Shown here: piece after piece, positions 20,207-23,571 of the stretch | Layout of the letters: each line of letters starts with the position of its first letter | How positions within the stretch are numbered: position 1 is the stretch's first letter | Assembly: GCF_002006995.1 (NCBI RefSeq) | Contig: NZ_MRUL01000027.1 | Span: 8,626 to 32,625 of the forward strand | Source: Izhakiella australiensis | GTDB lineage: Bacteria > Pseudomonadota > Gammaproteobacteria > Enterobacterales > Enterobacteriaceae | Direction of reading: 5' to 3' | DNA: 24,000 nucleotides | Notes under the pieces: model-generated | The model's database searches: none | Told to the model about the DNA's origin: nothing | Seen by the model: only the letters and a program-made list of their open reading frames with translations | Made by a program: the position numbers and the translations under genes

Positions 20207-21040
20207 TTAGCGCCCCTCTTTTCTTACGCGTTCAATGTGGAGGGCAAGAAACATCACTTCTTCGCTGGTCAGCTTTCGCTGATAACGCTGCTCGAGATGG
20301 CGGGCAATATTTTCGGCGCAGCGCCAGGCCCGGGGATAATATTGCTTAACCGCGCTGTGTAAGGTGACATCATCGTCGGCCACCACGGTGCGGGTCAGCA
20401 TACGCTGAGCAAAGAACTTCAGATGGATAACAAAGCGCTGATAGCTTAACGATTCCTCATCGTATTCCAGCTGCAGCTGATATTTAACCAACTGCAGGAT
20501 CTCCTGCATGACGCGGGTAATGTGCATAACCTCCGGCATTTCGCTGTTAAGCTGCCCGGTAACCAGATGCAGCGCAATAAAGCCGGCTTCATCCTCTGCT
20601 AACTGCACGCCAAGCCGCTGTGCGATGATCTCCAGCGCCTGCAGCCCGATCGCATACTCTCGCGGATAAAGACGCTTTATCTCCCACAGCAGGACGTTCT
20701 TAATTTCAACGCCTTTGCTGTGCCGTTCAATGGCGAAGTTGCAGTGATCGGTAAGGGTGATATACAGGCTCTCATGCAGATTGCCCAGCCTGCTGCGGGC
20801 CAGCTCAATAATGCGATCGCAAGTGGTCATCACCTCCAGCGGGATCTGACCGAGCAGCTCCCCCAGACGGCGACTTAACGCACTGCTTTGCAGGTGAAAC
20901 ACCTTCTCAATTTTAGTTTCGTCCAGCCGCTCTCCTGGCCGTTTCTGAAATGCCAGACCGCGCCCCATAACCACCTGCTCGTGCTGGTGTTCATCGCGCA
21001 CCATCACGACATTATTATTAAGAACCTGGCTGATTTTCAT
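20207..21040 (-). CDS. BglG/SacY/LicT-family transcriptional antiterminator (CAT RNA-binding domain plus PRD1 and PRD2)
   Basis: [41 protein letters not shown] is a canonical CAT domain. PRD histidine contexts are [26 protein letters not shown] and [10 protein letters not shown] take the start as the ATG at 21038-21040, not the ORF-track start at 21085, which would read through the terminator. Confidence 0.9.
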
Positions 21041-21056
21041 CCTTTCCCCGGAAACA

Positions 21057-21118
21057 AAAAAACCTGAATCCCGGCAACGCCGCAAGAATCAGGTTTTGTA
21101 TGCGAACGCATATAGTCC
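21057..21118 (-). promoter_or_regulatory. RAT-like antiterminator target overlapping an intrinsic terminator, in the leader of the BglG-family gene
   Basis: The minus strand reads GGACTATATGCGTTCGCATACAAAACCTGATTC...GATTCAGGTTTTTTTG. The AACCTGA/TCAGGTT stem is followed by a T7 run. The CAAAACC tail of the RAT forms the 5' arm of the terminator. Confidence 0.7.
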
Positions 21119-21196
21119 ATTTGCGCCAGACTATCACACTTCTATAACCACACTAAAGGTATGGCTTGTAACAGCATGCTGAAATTCAGCGCATCG

Positions 21197-22069
21197 CTAT
21201 GGCAGTAATTTACGCAGCGCGCCTTCATGCTCAGGCGCATTCCAGGAGCCGTCGAACACCGTCCATGTGATATAGCCTTTATCCAGCCAGCCGCTATCGG
21301 TATCGCTATCAGTTTTCTTTGACGAAGCCTCGCTCATAATTTGCTGAGCCCGCCCGTCTGATAATATTTTATAAGAAAACTGTGGCGTCGGATGCTGCTC
21401 GTTACCCACGTACTTAATCCCTTTAATCGCAGATTCAGGCAGCGCCGGATAGTTGATGCTCAGCCCGATGCCGCCCGGTAGCACCGGCGTTCCCGGCTGC
21501 CATTTGCCATGCAGTTTATCAACCAGCGTCACCACATAGTTGACTGACTCAGGCCAGTATTTTTTGGTGCTTGGCCAGCCCGCCTTCATCTCTTCTGTGG
21601 TCATGATATAGCCAATGCTGGCGGCAATGGACGGGTAGCCGTAACGCAGCGCGCGCGCCGCGGCGGACAGAGTGCCGGAGTTCATCTGTGCCGCGCCGGT
21701 ATTGGGGCCATCATTAACCCCGGAAATGACCAGGTCGGGCGGATTATCTTTCAAAAGCCCTAACAGCGCGAAATCAACCGAATCAGCCGGCGTGCCGGGG
21801 AAACAGAAACGCTGTTTTACCAGCTGCTTCACGTCAAAAATTTTATTCGGCTTAAAGGTAATTGCTGAGCCAATGCCGCTTTGATTCGTGGCCGGCGCCA
21901 CCATCCAGACATCGTAACCTTTGGCTGCCAGCTTTTCCTGCAAAGAGACAGTACCTGGTGATTTGCAGCCATCATCATTGACCAGCAAAATACGCATCGG
22001 CCGGTCTGCCGCATTAACGCCCGCACTAAAGCAACCGGCCAAAGCCAGTGTAATTAATAATTTTTTCAT
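21197..22069 (-). CDS. SurE-family 5'/3'-nucleotidase or acid phosphatase with an N-terminal signal peptide (predicted periplasmic)
   Basis: Signal peptide MKKLLITLALAGCFSAGVNA-AD, followed by RILLVNDDG and SGVNDGPNTGAAQMNSGTLSAA, which match SurE metal-binding and active-site motifs. Confidence 0.8.
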   Translation of the reverse strand: MKKLLITLALAGCFSAGVNAADRPMRILLVNDDGCKSPGTVSLQEKLAAKGYDVWMVAPATNQSGIGSAITFKPNKIFDVKQLVKQRFCFPGTPADSVDFALLGLLKDNPPDLVISGVNDGPNTGAAQMNSGTLSAAARALRYGYPSIAASIGYIMTTEEMKAGWPSTKKYWPESVNYVVTLVDKLHGKWQPGTPVLPGGIGLSINYPALPESAIKGIKYVGNEQHPTPQFSYKILSDGRAQQIMSEASSKKTDSDTDSGWLDKGYITWTVFDGSWNAPEHEGALRKLLP

Positions 22070-22090
22070 ATTTCCCTCTGGTTTAAATAA

Positions 22091-23422
22091 TTAAAGTATG
22101 CCAAATCGATACTCTACGGTGACGCCGCCACCAATACCCTGCGAGCGGTGGTAGCCATTTTTATCCCCCGTCAACCAGGGATTGCCCTTATCCAGCTTCC
22201 AGCTGTAAGCAGGACCAAATGCAGCGGCAAAAGAGAAGCCTTTAATTTGTTTCGGCGTCCAGCGAAAATAGCCGCCATATTCCCACTCTTTTAATGAAAC
22301 CCCATGGTATTTAACATCCCAGCCATAATAGCCGTAGGTACCCACGGAAAATTCTTCGCTGAATGCATACTGGCTATACAAATAAAGCATCTGCTCGCCA
22401 TTGTTAATATAATCATTTCCCGGACCATCGGCCTTACTGTTAAATGCACCACGGGTATTTCGCCCTAAATGCCAGTAAAATCGTCCAAGTCCATCATCAA
22501 GGTCGGCTTTAGTTTTCGACCAGCCAAGACCAGATTCGACGTTTTTATAACGGTATCCTACTAAACCATAAATATGCTGTGCGCTGTGCGAAAAGCCTCG
22601 GGTTCCCTCCCACTCGCCCAATCCTTTGTTATAGTAATAAACGCCGCGAAATAGCAGATCGGAATCGGTGCTTACAGCTAAACGACCTTCCGCTTCAACA
22701 CCGTGGCGCATAATATAGTCTTTACTTTCACCAACAACATAAGTTAATGAATTACCCTTTGAGGGACGCCAGCTAATATCACTCGTGGCGATATAAGGTA
22801 TTTTTTTATGTGATGAAAGCGTATAAAAGTGACGCATTTCAGGCTCATCACGCTCTGAGAAACGATTAACGACAGCCGCACGAAAAACAAATTGATCCCA
22901 GCCACTTACCAGGCTGACCCCCTCCCAACTGCTGGGAGCCGCGCGACTGCGCGTCACGTTGAGAATTCCGAACTTATACAGCTGCTTCCAGCCCAGATTA
23001 ACGTGGGCATAGCGTTGTTTATTTCCCCAGCGGGCCTTTGCGTAGAACTGGCCGAATTTATTAAACCCCTCGGCATGGCCATTATTATCGCGGACCAGGT
23101 CTCTGGGGGCAAAACTGTTGTTGGCATAAAGCTTTTCGACGTCATACCAGGAAACGCCGAAGCCGAGGGTATCTCGCCACCATCCGCTGTCATAATCTAC
23201 CAGCACCGCCTGAGCCCACGCGGCCTGATCGCCCATCCCTATCTGCGAAAGGCCATCGGTGCCGTTCAGCATCCAGACATTTTTTAACCTAATGTCCAGC
23301 TTGCTGTCTTCCAGTAATCCATCACTATTGAAAGGTAATGCCACCGCCCCGCAAGCTGCGAAGCTACATCCGGACAGTAGCGCCAAGGGAAGGCCTATAT
23401 TTTTTATTTTCATCGTTATCAT
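22091..23422 (-). CDS. Outer-membrane beta-barrel porin, OprD/ChiP-like family candidate
   Basis: 443 aa with alternating aromatic/glycine beta-strand pattern throughout, a terminal VTVEYRFGIL strand and an N-terminal export signal. An alternative start lies at 23413 (MKIKNIGLPLALLSGC). Confidence 0.65.
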   Translation of the reverse strand: MITMKIKNIGLPLALLSGCSFAACGAVALPFNSDGLLEDSKLDIRLKNVWMLNGTDGLSQIGMGDQAAWAQAVLVDYDSGWWRDTLGFGVSWYDVEKLYANNSFAPRDLVRDNNGHAEGFNKFGQFYAKARWGNKQRYAHVNLGWKQLYKFGILNVTRSRAAPSSWEGVSLVSGWDQFVFRAAVVNRFSERDEPEMRHFYTLSSHKKIPYIATSDISWRPSKGNSLTYVVGESKDYIMRHGVEAEGRLAVSTDSDLLFRGVYYYNKGLGEWEGTRGFSHSAQHIYGLVGYRYKNVESGLGWSKTKADLDDGLGRFYWHLGRNTRGAFNSKADGPGNDYINNGEQMLYLYSQYAFSEEFSVGTYGYYGWDVKYHGVSLKEWEYGGYFRWTPKQIKGFSFAAAFGPAYSWKLDKGNPWLTGDKNGYHRSQGIGGGVTVEYRFGIL

Positions 23423-23490
23423 CCGCTGATTTCTACGAAATAATTACCCTGGTGTTAATGCAAAGTAATAATTTTAGCGCCTCCTTTTTT

Positions 23491-23571
23491 AAAACAAAAA
23501 AACCTAAGCGGCTGAATTACCCTTTCAGGTAACTCGGCCGCTTAGGTTTTGCCTGTATTGAGTAACAACCC
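23491..23571 (-). promoter_or_regulatory. RAT antiterminator target overlapping an intrinsic terminator, in the leader of the porin operon
   Basis: The minus strand reads GGGTTGTTACTCAATACAGGCAAAACCTAAGCGGC-(24 nt)-GCCGCTTAGGTTTTTTTGTTTT. The 12-bp stem pairs 23501-23512 with 23537-23548. The RAT (23545-23571) closely resembles the E. coli bgl RAT GGATTGTTACTGCATTCGCAGGCAAAACC as I recall it. Confidence 0.75.

Follow-up and report, generated by a model that had tools for sequence, protein, structure and literature searches.

BglG-type antitermination is a textbook switch, whose targets are cytoplasmic-membrane transporters, cytoplasmic glycosidases and the E. coli porin BglH. The cognate sugar-specific EII of PRD-antiterminator systems is usually encoded in the same operon. 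By analogy with the bgl operon of E. coli and LicT/SacY of B. subtilis, transcription would stop at each of the leaders considered here as long as the RAT is not bound by the antiterminator through its dimeric CAT domain; since the terminator stem begins with the 3' AAAACC of the RAT, binding would prevent the terminator from forming. The same analogy predicts that BglF phosphorylates and inactivates the antiterminator of complete operons when no beta-glucoside is present. Canonical SurE (UmpG) is a 5'/3'-nucleotidase/exopolyphosphatase. It has been described as intracellular (review PMC8475336), and bgl homologs of Klebsiella pneumoniae (KPN_02580-02577) and Enterobacter sp. 638 were reported by Sankar et al. 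2009 (PMC2646131, Fig. 5). Our literature searches found no description of BglG/RAT control extending to a porin and a secreted phosphatase of the SurE type, in agreement with an earlier note on the present locus, made from the sequence alone, whose author knew of no operon of this composition.

Gene content of the locus

The 24 kb window, i.e., the whole stretch of DNA that was analyzed, originates from the genome of Izhakiella australiensis. Its minus strand harbors the genes of an OprD-family porin, a SurE-family protein and a BglG/LicT antiterminator in this order, preceded by two leaders with a hairpin and a T-run (Table 1). These three identities, as proposed in the earlier note, proved right in comparisons with Pfam and NCBIfam. 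The porin matches Pfam OprD (PF03573) over residues 35-382 with 54.2 bits (cutoff 25, 1.6e-14), and this profile match together with a signal sequence places it in the OprD family; its sequence matches in the PDB are weak and lead to P. aeruginosa OprD (2e-7). The antiterminator matches CAT_RBD (4.8e-23) and, in two stretches, PRD (7e-44), and it passes the NCBIfam cutoffs for both LicT (384 > 300) and BglG (363 > 322). Its PRD histidines H99, H158, H206 and H268 are invariant in a 14-sequence alignment, in which the window antiterminator alone carries T205I beside His206 of PRD2. The TTG at 21085, taken from a mechanical list of open reading frames, was rejected as its start in favor of the ATG at 21040 indicated by ortholog alignments.

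The SurE-like protein, 100% identical to the protein of I. australiensis, reaches 146.1 bits against PF01975 (cutoff 22.1, 1.3e-42) and lies just above the cutoff of TIGR00087 (137.3 vs. 135.1). It stays below the cutoffs of all 12 other SurE equivalog models, and the shortfall against most of them is large in the SurE-like clade (e.g., 136 vs. 233). Both the DD motif (N31-D32-D33-G34) and the Asn loop (S116-G-V-N-D-G-P-N-T-G125) are invariant in an alignment of 14 sequences and align to solved SurEs. The AlphaFold model, which is of moderate quality (mean pLDDT 70.4), exhibits the SurE fold, and the best 50 Foldseek matches in the PDB are all SurE proteins (E down to 2.8e-12, TM about 0.5). 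We infer from the sequence that the protein may be active as a phosphatase. Its N-terminal extension comprises 24 residues (MKKLLITLALAGCFSAGVNA-AD) with a KK/hydrophobic/VNA-A pattern; the signal-peptide-like segment is conserved in 14 of 14 aligned homologs, and solved SurEs align only from residue 24-27. This pattern departs from the cytoplasmic location of characterized SurE members, and the protein looks secreted, as the earlier note had also read it. A word-limited protein search retrieved only 289 related clusters, and a genome scan located the clade in Enterobacterales and Orbaceae; the only match beyond these was a distant one in Pirellulales.

Profile and tblastn searches of the 24 kb window retrieved no Bgl-type EII, and a GH1 glycosidase is missing from it as well, which bears out the previously claimed absence of a bglF-like EII and a glycosidase. 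The sole PTS of the window is an IIB/EIIC-GAT/EIIA_2 system (15933-18037, plus strand), and no cognate EII controlling the antiterminator in cis is located within these 24 kb.

Table 1. Features of the Izhakiella australiensis locus (positions within the 24 kb window)
Feature	Position	Strand	Remarks
LysR gene	19271-20155	+	unrelated, convergent; adjoins the breakpoint
Breakpoint	20156..20206	.	51 bp between the antiterminator stop and the stop codon of the convergent LysR gene
BglG/LicT-family antiterminator	20207..21040	-	CAT domain, PRD1 and PRD2; full length compared with orthologs
Terminator 2	21052..21097	-	hairpin and T7-G-TTT, immediately before the ribosome-binding site of the antiterminator gene
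Degenerate RAT 2	21092..21118	-	GGACTATATGCGTTCGCATACAAAACC; corresponds in position to the canonical RAT ahead of antiterminator genes in orthologs
Putative internal promoter P2	21128..21136	-	extended -10 (TGaTAGTCT) preceding leader 2
Putative secreted SurE-family phosphatase	21197..22069	-	PF01975; signal-peptide-like residues 1-22, then MRILLVNDDG core
OprD-family outer-membrane porin (porin A)	22091..23422	-	Pfam OprD; alternative start ATG 23413
Terminator 1	23491..23550	-	long hairpin, then T7-G-T4; 5' arm starts with AAAACC of the RAT
RAT 1	23545..23571	-	GGGTTGTTACTCAATACAGGCAAAACC; match of covariance model R1
Putative promoter P1	23588..23596	-	extended -10 (TGgTAGATT), ~17 nt upstream of RAT 1
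IS3-family element, 3' end	23870..24000	-	end of transposase gene with terminal inverted repeat; bounds the locus upstream

Structure of the two leaders

RAT 1 is the only significant match of covariance model R1 in the window (28.6 bits, E 2.7e-5). This model was built from other genomes and trained only on the loci of the SurE scan, and it finds both experimentally known bgl RATs of E. coli with 45.3 and 41.3 bits. In the family alignment, pairing extends to 96.6% of the RAT cells, with covariation at the apical pair (UA 35 vs. CG 33). The hairpin of leader 1 (23571-23491) has a folding energy of -41.6 kcal/mol (z = -6.3), which is reached by none of 200 shuffles, and compensatory changes are present in 13 of the 22 pairs of terminator 1 in an alignment of 18 species. 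Fold and alignment agree with the earlier observation that the terminator uses the 3' end of the RAT (AAAACC) as its 5' arm. As far as sequences can tell, leader 1 is confirmed as a genuine RAT/terminator, far beyond chance, with the RAT overlapping an intrinsic terminator upstream of regulated genes. Together with the CAT/PRD antiterminator it substantiates the BglG/RAT-terminator type of regulation that had been proposed, and orthologous RATs are located upstream of porin/SurE in other species. The putative promoter P1 is based on a GTGnTAnnnT motif that 18 orthologous leaders share at this spacing from their RAT and does not appear in the output of a simple promoter scan. RAT 1 is somewhat off consensus, as members of the family score 36-43 bits and thus about 8-15 bits more; the exchange of G12 to C removes one pair and leaves an upper stem of 2 bp. 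RAT 1 need not be defective, since a 2-bp upper stem is also conserved in the SurE leaders of Kluyvera.

The earlier claim of two RAT-terminator leaders holds for leader 1 and for the hairpin and T-run of leader 2, but it overstates the case because the second RAT is degenerate and escapes model R1 even at E <= 10. RAT 2 has lost G6, A9-C10 are deleted and the GG of GGCA is changed to TA, i.e., five invariant bases are gone, and none of the 94 family RATs deviates at the affected columns. Judged by its position-for-position alignment with canonical orthologous leaders, it is a RAT by descent only. The sequence of terminator 2 is conserved with orthologs (TGATT..CTGGC..GCCAGAGGTCAGGTTTTTTTGTTTC), and the fold of leader 2 (21118-21057) is unexceptional on its own (z = -1.4). 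The antiterminator gene is accordingly preceded by a terminator that lacks a recognizable overlapping RAT. In orthologs, TGaTAGAGT/TGgTAGAGT is conserved at a distance of 8-10 nt on the 5' side of the RAT in the antiterminator leader, and the corresponding P2 motif is a putative promoter. The Izhakiella locus would hence retain a credible switch ahead of porin-SurE in leader 1, and the promoter and terminator of leader 2 appear to have outlived their RAT; antiterminator synthesis is therefore predicted to depend on read-through, and autoregulation to be gone. In the absence of a cognate EII in cis, any antiterminator produced would either act whether or not sugar is present or answer to an EII whose gene lies elsewhere.

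Loss of bglF-bglB (or gain of only a partial cassette beside the IS3 element) could alternatively have left a cryptic remnant that is transcriptionally silent and whose genes are heading to decay. A constitutive terminator 2 would block antiterminator synthesis, and terminator 1 would therefore never be bypassed. The loss of five invariant bases in front of an intact terminator, the low score of RAT 1, the T205I exchange and the flanking IS3 element fit this scenario, which we nevertheless regard as unlikely: all three ORFs are full length with catalytic and regulatory residues kept, and the short upper stem of RAT 1 has its conserved equivalent in Kluyvera. Clear decay is not evident, as the three proteins exhibit 6, 5 and 13 singleton changes at otherwise invariant columns vs. 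0-7 in other species, so that full function of the locus, in a manner that has escaped us, is conceivable. The IS3 end is 91-92% identical to IS3-family transposase ends of 858 E. coli genomes; the end of its ORF is readable in the sequence, and its terminal inverted repeat ends in TCA.

Complete operons in related species

We scanned a single genome per species with the SurE-like profile, which provided 66 relevant loci; their maps were established by tblastn. The order porin A-SurE-antiterminator-EII-GH1 is colinear in about 22 species, including representatives of Kosakonia, Cedecea, Buttiauxella and Dryocola, several Enterobacter species and two Pantoea. The complete operon consists of P1, RAT/terminator, OprD-like porin, SurE-like gene, P2, RAT/terminator, bglG, RAT/terminator, bglF (EIIBCA) and bglB (GH1). 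The EIIBCA of these relatives passes the BglF equivalog cutoff (1055.8 bits vs. 894), their GH1 protein matches PF00232 (1.9e-154) and the 6-phospho-beta-glucosidase model NF007356 (645.5 > 623), and porin orthologs with 50-61% identity are located directly upstream of the SurE-like gene. At the position of the breakpoint, the relatives carry the third RAT/terminator followed by bglF-bglB. Alignment of the 51-bp breakpoint region revealed no remnant of this third RAT, the adjoining LysR gene is not orthologous to the LysR gene 3' of the Kosakonia operon, and the flanks of the Izhakiella locus are syntenic with those of no complete operon.

The trio is directly followed by BglF EIIBCA and GH1 in about 22 species, and the Izhakiella copy is therefore truncated. 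The locus probably represents the 5' portion of an extended bgl operon, modular and conserved, from which bglF-bglB and the third leader are gone; the switch of leader 1 was kept, RAT 2 was lost, and porin and SurE-like protein would serve in substrate handling. According to the sequences compared, the state without EII is specific to the Izhakiella lineage, and parsimony favors a loss of bglFB over the acquisition of a partial cassette. The non-syntenic flanks and the stand-alone porin-SurE pairs of two Erwinia species speak against this direction of evolution. The earlier idea of a module working without EII or glycosidase is at odds with these operons, and the ordinary bglF-bglB block of relatives that its author had named as speaking against it is precisely what they contain.

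Wider distribution of the SurE-like gene

The SurE-like gene is located beside EII-GH1 in further layouts (eleven loci), and altogether its linkage to EII, GH1 or antiterminator genes takes no fewer than five distinct gene orders. A RAT with a T-run is present upstream of the SurE transcription unit in 53 of the 66 loci, representing more than 15 genera, and in some of them SurE heads a SurE-EII-GH1 unit. It is accordingly very improbable that the SurE-like protein and the porin are unrelated passengers upstream of the bgl operon with their own promoter and no tie to beta-glucosides. This proposal draws on the bglGFB homologs of K. pneumoniae and Enterobacter sp. 638, which occupy the same dus/yohI slot without SurE (PMC2646131), so that bglGFB works without it.

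Other layouts comprise a secreted His_Phos_1 phosphatase or a second porin as extra cargo, and in Providencia a Ser-type sulfatase and a radical-SAM maturase belong to the RAT regulon. In the Klebsiella oxytoca-group, Raoultella and Kluyvera, SurE and a divergent His-phosphatase/porin operon each possess their own RAT/terminator, and no antiterminator or EII is found within 8-10 kb of these stand-alone units. Stand-alone porin-SurE pairs occur in two Erwinia species, and the pair of Erwinia sp. JUb26 has a canonical RAT (38.3 bits) amid unrelated genes. Such RAT-controlled units and the intact Izhakiella ORFs are compatible with a self-standing, sugar-responsive envelope scavenging module, in which a phosphorylated glycoside or nucleotide would enter via the porin and be dephosphorylated by the SurE-like protein, and the antiterminator would be titrated by a BglF-type EII encoded elsewhere. 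We consider this possible but rather doubtful, as the closest architecture has bglF-bglB in cis, a destroyed RAT 2 with a remaining terminator 2 argues against a well-tuned circuit, and the 24 kb window lacks a Bgl-type EII.

For the extended operon, we infer as a working assumption that anionic beta-glucosides are de-esterified in the periplasm before PTS uptake. An anionic (phosphorylated) substrate would pass through the porin into the periplasm and be dephosphorylated there by the phosphatase, and in complete operons this step would precede PTS uptake and GH1 cleavage. The further secreted esterases in the RAT regulon and the stand-alone SurE/porin units provide circumstantial backing. A broader and tentative reading is an unrecognized BglG/RAT regulon of Enterobacterales with modular OprD/OprB-type porins and secreted esterases (SurE-like, His_Phos_1, Providencia sulfatase/maturase): anionic (phosphorylated or sulfated) beta-glucosides might be admitted and stripped of their ester groups in the periplasm prior to BglF uptake and GH1 cleavage, and the envelope half of Izhakiella might survive alone with the antiterminator as a phosphate-/carbon-scavenging unit. 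The apparent placement of secreted phosphatases under a BglG-type switch across more than 50 enterobacterial species, and of a sulfatase in one genus, suggests that the natural substrates of bgl systems include esterified glycosides that need trimming in the periplasm. If such an envelope pre-processing regulon is real, it would define a new substrate class for bgl systems. The RAT-linked loci also provide a first functional context for an apparently secreted branch of the SurE family, whose other members are described as intracellular (PMC8475336). The Izhakiella copy resembles a natural dissection, with the envelope half and the regulator present without the sensor and with one RAT lost while its terminator was kept, and is therefore useful for testing circuit decay or rewiring.

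Comparison with known systems

The Bacillus subtilis LicT/SacY systems share the CAT-PRD1-PRD2 composition of the antiterminator, which passes the NCBIfam LicT equivalog cutoff, and a 29-nt RAT that overlaps the terminator. They differ in their Gram-positive host, in their targets (EII plus glycosidase or levansucrase) and in the lack of outer-membrane or periplasmic cargo. Pfam and TIGR00087 membership, the NDDG and SGxNxGxN Asn motifs and the fold connect the SurE-like protein with canonical SurE (UmpG), from which its clade deviates by the 24-residue signal-peptide-like extension. The bgl operons of K. pneumoniae (KPN_02580-02577) and Enterobacter sp. 638 occupy the same dus(yohI)-to-yohG slot as the complete operon of Kosakonia and exhibit the order antiterminator-EII-GH1 with conserved terminators, and that of K. 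pneumoniae has an upstream 'carbohydrate-selective porin' (PMC2646131); in contrast, their description contains neither a SurE-like gene nor RAT control of phosphatases. The resemblance to bglGFBH of E. coli extends from the antiterminator (57% identity to BglG, BglG equivalog cutoff passed) to the RAT consensus, the RAT/terminator overlap, the relatives' EII and GH1 that pass the BglF equivalog and a 6-phospho-beta-glucosidase model, and the inclusion of an outer-membrane porin. However, the porin of the extended operon is of the OprD family and stands first, whereas BglH is distal and annotated as carbohydrate-specific; a secreted SurE-like phosphatase is added, and the complete extended operon has three RAT checkpoints instead of two. 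The window differs further by its degenerate RAT 2 and by lacking bglF and bglB. The type of system is already known, and it is the cargo under the BglG/RAT switch, a porin and a secreted phosphatase, that looks new.

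Composition of the porin-SurE-antiterminator locus

The features of the locus and its surroundings are compiled in the table. The three protein identities and the BglG-type regulation proposed in the earlier note are supported. The window antiterminator shows 57% identity to E. coli BglG. All three open reading frames of the trio are intact, and a count against the aligned species, among which the window represents a lone lineage, revealed no clear excess of singleton substitutions. The four PRD histidines of the antiterminator are all kept in the alignment with its relatives. 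The SurE-like protein, whose 100% identity to an Izhakiella australiensis protein reflects the source species, retains the NDDG and SGVNDGPNTG motifs, and a structure search with its predicted model exclusively matched SurE structures. It carries a signal-peptide-like N-terminal extension of 24 residues; the alignment of solved SurE structures begins at residue 24-27.

Features of the window and of loci from other genomes
Source	Position	Strand	Feature	Remarks
Window	130-8712	minus	Polysaccharide gene cluster	Low GC (31-38%); sugar-nucleotide dehydratases/epimerases, UDP-galactopyranose mutase, ABC transporter ATPase
Window	8805-8843	minus	JUMPstart RNA (RF01707)	55.1 bits; heads the polysaccharide cluster
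Window	11885-14469	minus	MFS/DUF cluster	MFS transporter, DUF6385, DUF6772
Window	14759-18037		GntR/FCD regulator and PTS	Adjoins the MFS/DUF cluster; IIB(lactose/cellobiose-type)/EIIC-GAT/EIIA_2 system at 15933-18037
Window	21040-20207	minus	BglG/LicT-family antiterminator	CAT domain and two PRDs; residue 205 at 20425-20427
Window	21118-21057	minus	Leader 2	Upstream of the antiterminator gene
Window	22069-21197	minus	SurE-family protein	Family assignment
Window	23422-22091	minus	OprD-family porin (porin A)	Family assignment
Window	23571-23491	minus	Leader 1	Upstream of the porin gene
Window	23600-23870		Spacer	Very AT-rich
Window	23870-24000		End of IS3-family element	About 300 bp upstream of the operon promoter
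L001 (Erwinia oleae)	6688-8876		Porin A-SurE pair	No RAT
L033 (Erwinia sp. JUb26)	6498-8894		Porin A-SurE pair	Canonical RAT, 38.3 bits
L002 (Enterobacteriaceae isolate)	8985-10539		OprB-family carbohydrate porin	Own RAT/terminator
L019 (Enterobacteriaceae MAG)	4005-5600		OprB-family carbohydrate porin	Own RAT/terminator
L050 (Providencia huashanensis)	4200-16056		Sulfatase-containing cluster	About 12 kb; L049 similar
L071 (Raoultella)	7269-9457		His_Phos_1-porin B operon	Type C example

Conservation and decay of the RAT/terminator leaders

An Rfam scan of the window at gathering thresholds yielded no RAT family match, the unrelated JUMPstart element being the only match, and we therefore built our own RAT model. 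This model (R1) is based on an alignment (A2) of RAT sequences collected at related loci (94 distinct sequences), on which the published hairpin with two internal loops was imposed; 96.6% of the cells lie in pairs, and covariation is seen at the apical pair (UA 35 vs. CG 33). As an independent positive control, R1 recovered both experimentally known E. coli bgl RATs (45.3 and 41.3 bits). The covariance-model scan that the earlier note had recommended for both leaders substantiates only one half of its claim of two RAT-terminator leaders: leader 1 is the sole match in the window (28.6 bits, E 2.7e-5), whereas the RAT of leader 2 is a relic that R1 does not detect at E <= 10. The RATs of relatives score 36-43 bits, and leader 1 falls short of them because a G12->C exchange reduces its upper stem to 2 bp, which is the natural shape in the SurE leaders of Kluyvera.

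The hairpin of leader 1 is very stable (-41.6 kcal/mol, z = -6.3); leader 2 possesses a hairpin and a T-run, and its fold is unexceptional (z = -1.4). Both terminators were missed by a simple terminator scan, probably due to its stem and loop limits, and were assessed by folding and alignment instead. In the terminator consensus of an 18-species alignment, the AAAACC of the leader 1 RAT opens the 5' arm, and 13 of the 22 pairs show compensatory changes. This combination shows that the terminator is real and cannot form simultaneously with the RAT, in accordance with the mutual exclusion postulated before.

A comparison with about 20 orthologous antiterminator leaders revealed that leader 2 matches them in its extended -10 (TGATAGTCT), its terminator and its ribosome-binding site and, judging from its sequence, is clearly the same element. 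Its RAT has lost G6, suffered a deletion of A9-C10 and exchanged GG for TA, all in columns that are invariant in 94/94 RATs of the family; a repaired RAT would read GGATTGTTACTGCGTTCGCAGGCAAAACC. Leader 2 is dispensable. Two Pantoea loci (L044 and L059) have a degraded RAT and no T-run, and in Kosakonia cowanii (L011) the entire leader is missing between SurE and the antiterminator. This decay is opposite to that in Izhakiella, where the RAT was lost and the terminator kept.

Modular organization in other genomes

A scan of one genome per species with a SurE-like profile (A1) returned 68 loci, in which porin, SurE, antiterminator, EII, GH1 and His_Phos_1 were mapped by tblastn; for Kosakonia and Raoultella, called genes were used as well. 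The SurE transcription unit is preceded by a RAT and a T-run in 53 of 66 loci, and the gene is found in several modular layouts. In type A, porin A, SurE, antiterminator, EIIBCA and GH1 are colinear, with RAT/terminators upstream of the porin, the antiterminator and the EII. It comprises about 22 species, including members of Kosakonia, Cedecea, Buttiauxella, Dryocola and Enterobacter as well as two Pantoea. With 1055.8 bits, the EII exceeds the BglF equivalog cutoff of 894; the GH1 is recognized by a 6-phospho-beta-glucosidase model. The synteny of trio and leaders that the earlier note had suggested inspecting across Enterobacterales is present in type A, with an EII adjacent.

Type B (Enterobacillus, Pseudocitrobacter, Intestinirhabdus and others) consists of the divergent units [His_Phos_1, porin B, antiterminator] and [SurE, EII, GH1] with four RATs. 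In type C, which is represented by about 25 loci of the Klebsiella oxytoca group, Raoultella and Kluyvera, [His_Phos_1, porin B] is divergent from SurE, each with its own RAT/terminator and with neither antiterminator nor EII nearby. The operon of Raoultella and the other type C loci encodes a predicted secreted His_Phos_1 phosphatase, which has an RHG motif and an N-terminus resembling a signal peptide, together with a second porin of the OprD family that is 27% identical to the window porin. Pragia and Thorsellia harbor the same gene set in shuffled orders, and in two loci an additional OprB-family porin separates the SurE-like gene from the antiterminator.

In Providencia, a RAT-controlled Ser-type sulfatase (SAPTR motif) is added and a radical-SAM/SPASM maturase is located downstream of SurE. 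The P. huashanensis cluster exhibits four RAT-like elements (31.4, 31.3, 21.7 and 20.0 bits) and encodes, apart from the secreted sulfatase and the maturase, a porin, SurE, a HAD hydrolase, a distant BglG-family antiterminator and EII-GH1, a content that suggests a sulfated beta-glucoside as substrate. The porin A-SurE pair stands alone among unrelated genes in two Erwinia species, and the envelope pair is evidently able to persist by itself; in Erwiniaceae it resembles a mobile two-gene cassette in its behaviour. The trio has no ortholog in E. coli: among 5,426 genomes of this species, megablast of the locus found counterparts of the IS3 end only.

Origin of the Izhakiella locus

The earlier note had described a module without EII and glycosidase. 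This holds for the 24-kb window, which contains neither a Bgl-class EII nor a GH1 and whose sole PTS is the IIB/EIIC-GAT/EIIA_2 system, but it most probably reflects a lineage-specific truncation: the ordinary bglF-bglB block at this spot in close relatives, named beforehand as evidence against such a module, is exactly what type A exhibits. The Izhakiella locus corresponds to type A as far as the antiterminator stop codon, which is followed by 51 bp and a convergent LysR gene; an alignment-based search 3' of the stop codon found neither a third RAT/leader nor a bglF remnant. The most parsimonious reading is a truncated copy that arose via loss of bglF-bglB or via acquisition of a partial cassette. 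Orthology of the LysR gene with the gene downstream of the Kosakonia operon, a sign of in-situ deletion, was rejected, as the two are unrelated. The GC content amounts to 46-55% in the trio vs. 55-61% in the right-hand neighbours, a contrast that is no decisive evidence of horizontal transfer.

Proposed regulation and function

Sequence analysis documents the architecture, the RAT/terminator overlap, leaders that are conserved and covary, the families to which the proteins belong, and the lack of an EII in cis. By analogy with the paradigms of E. coli bgl and B. subtilis LicT/SacY, the antiterminator would bind RAT1 and allow read-through into porin and SurE. Leader 2 would now act as a constitutive terminator, and the supply of antiterminator would therefore depend on leakage. 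Without BglF, the antiterminator would be either sugar-independent or controlled in trans. Its residue 205, which adjoins PRD2 His206 on the N-terminal side, is Ile in the window (FVIHLKFF) vs. Thr in 13/13 aligned relatives (FVTHLKFF), and this change might alter the phosphorylation control of PRD2, the cognate EII being lost.

With respect to the cargo, an anionic substrate may enter via the porin and be dephosphorylated in the periplasm, a step that would precede PTS uptake in the complete operons. That secreted esterases of different kinds have repeatedly been recruited to one RAT regulon lends circumstantial support to this function. Glucosinolates, glucosyl-glycerol phosphates of teichoic acids and glucosylated phage nucleotides were dropped as specific substrates, since the data favour none over the others.

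Comparison with known bgl systems

The IS3-family end, which may represent the contig end, and the adjacent AT-rich spacer recall the geometry of E. coli bgl, whose H-NS-silenced promoter is activated by IS1/IS5 (PMC11043490). Homologs of bglGFB with conserved terminators have been reported for Klebsiella, Enterobacter and Erwinia, including a porin upstream of the bgl homologs in K. pneumoniae in a porin-AT-PTS-GH1 layout without SurE (Sankar et al. 2009, PMC2646131), and the Kosakonia operon occupies the same dus/yohI slot. SurE is unmentioned in that study, which was the only relevant description retrieved by full-text searches of the literature that paired SurE, phosphatase or porin with bgl or antiterminator. 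In a review of 5'-nucleotidases, SurE is regarded as intracellular (PMC8475336), and the words "porin" and "phosphatase" are both absent from a review on RNA-binding antiterminators published in 2025. As a switch, the BglG/RAT system is known; new is the extension of the BglG regulon to predicted secreted phosphatases and sulfatases.
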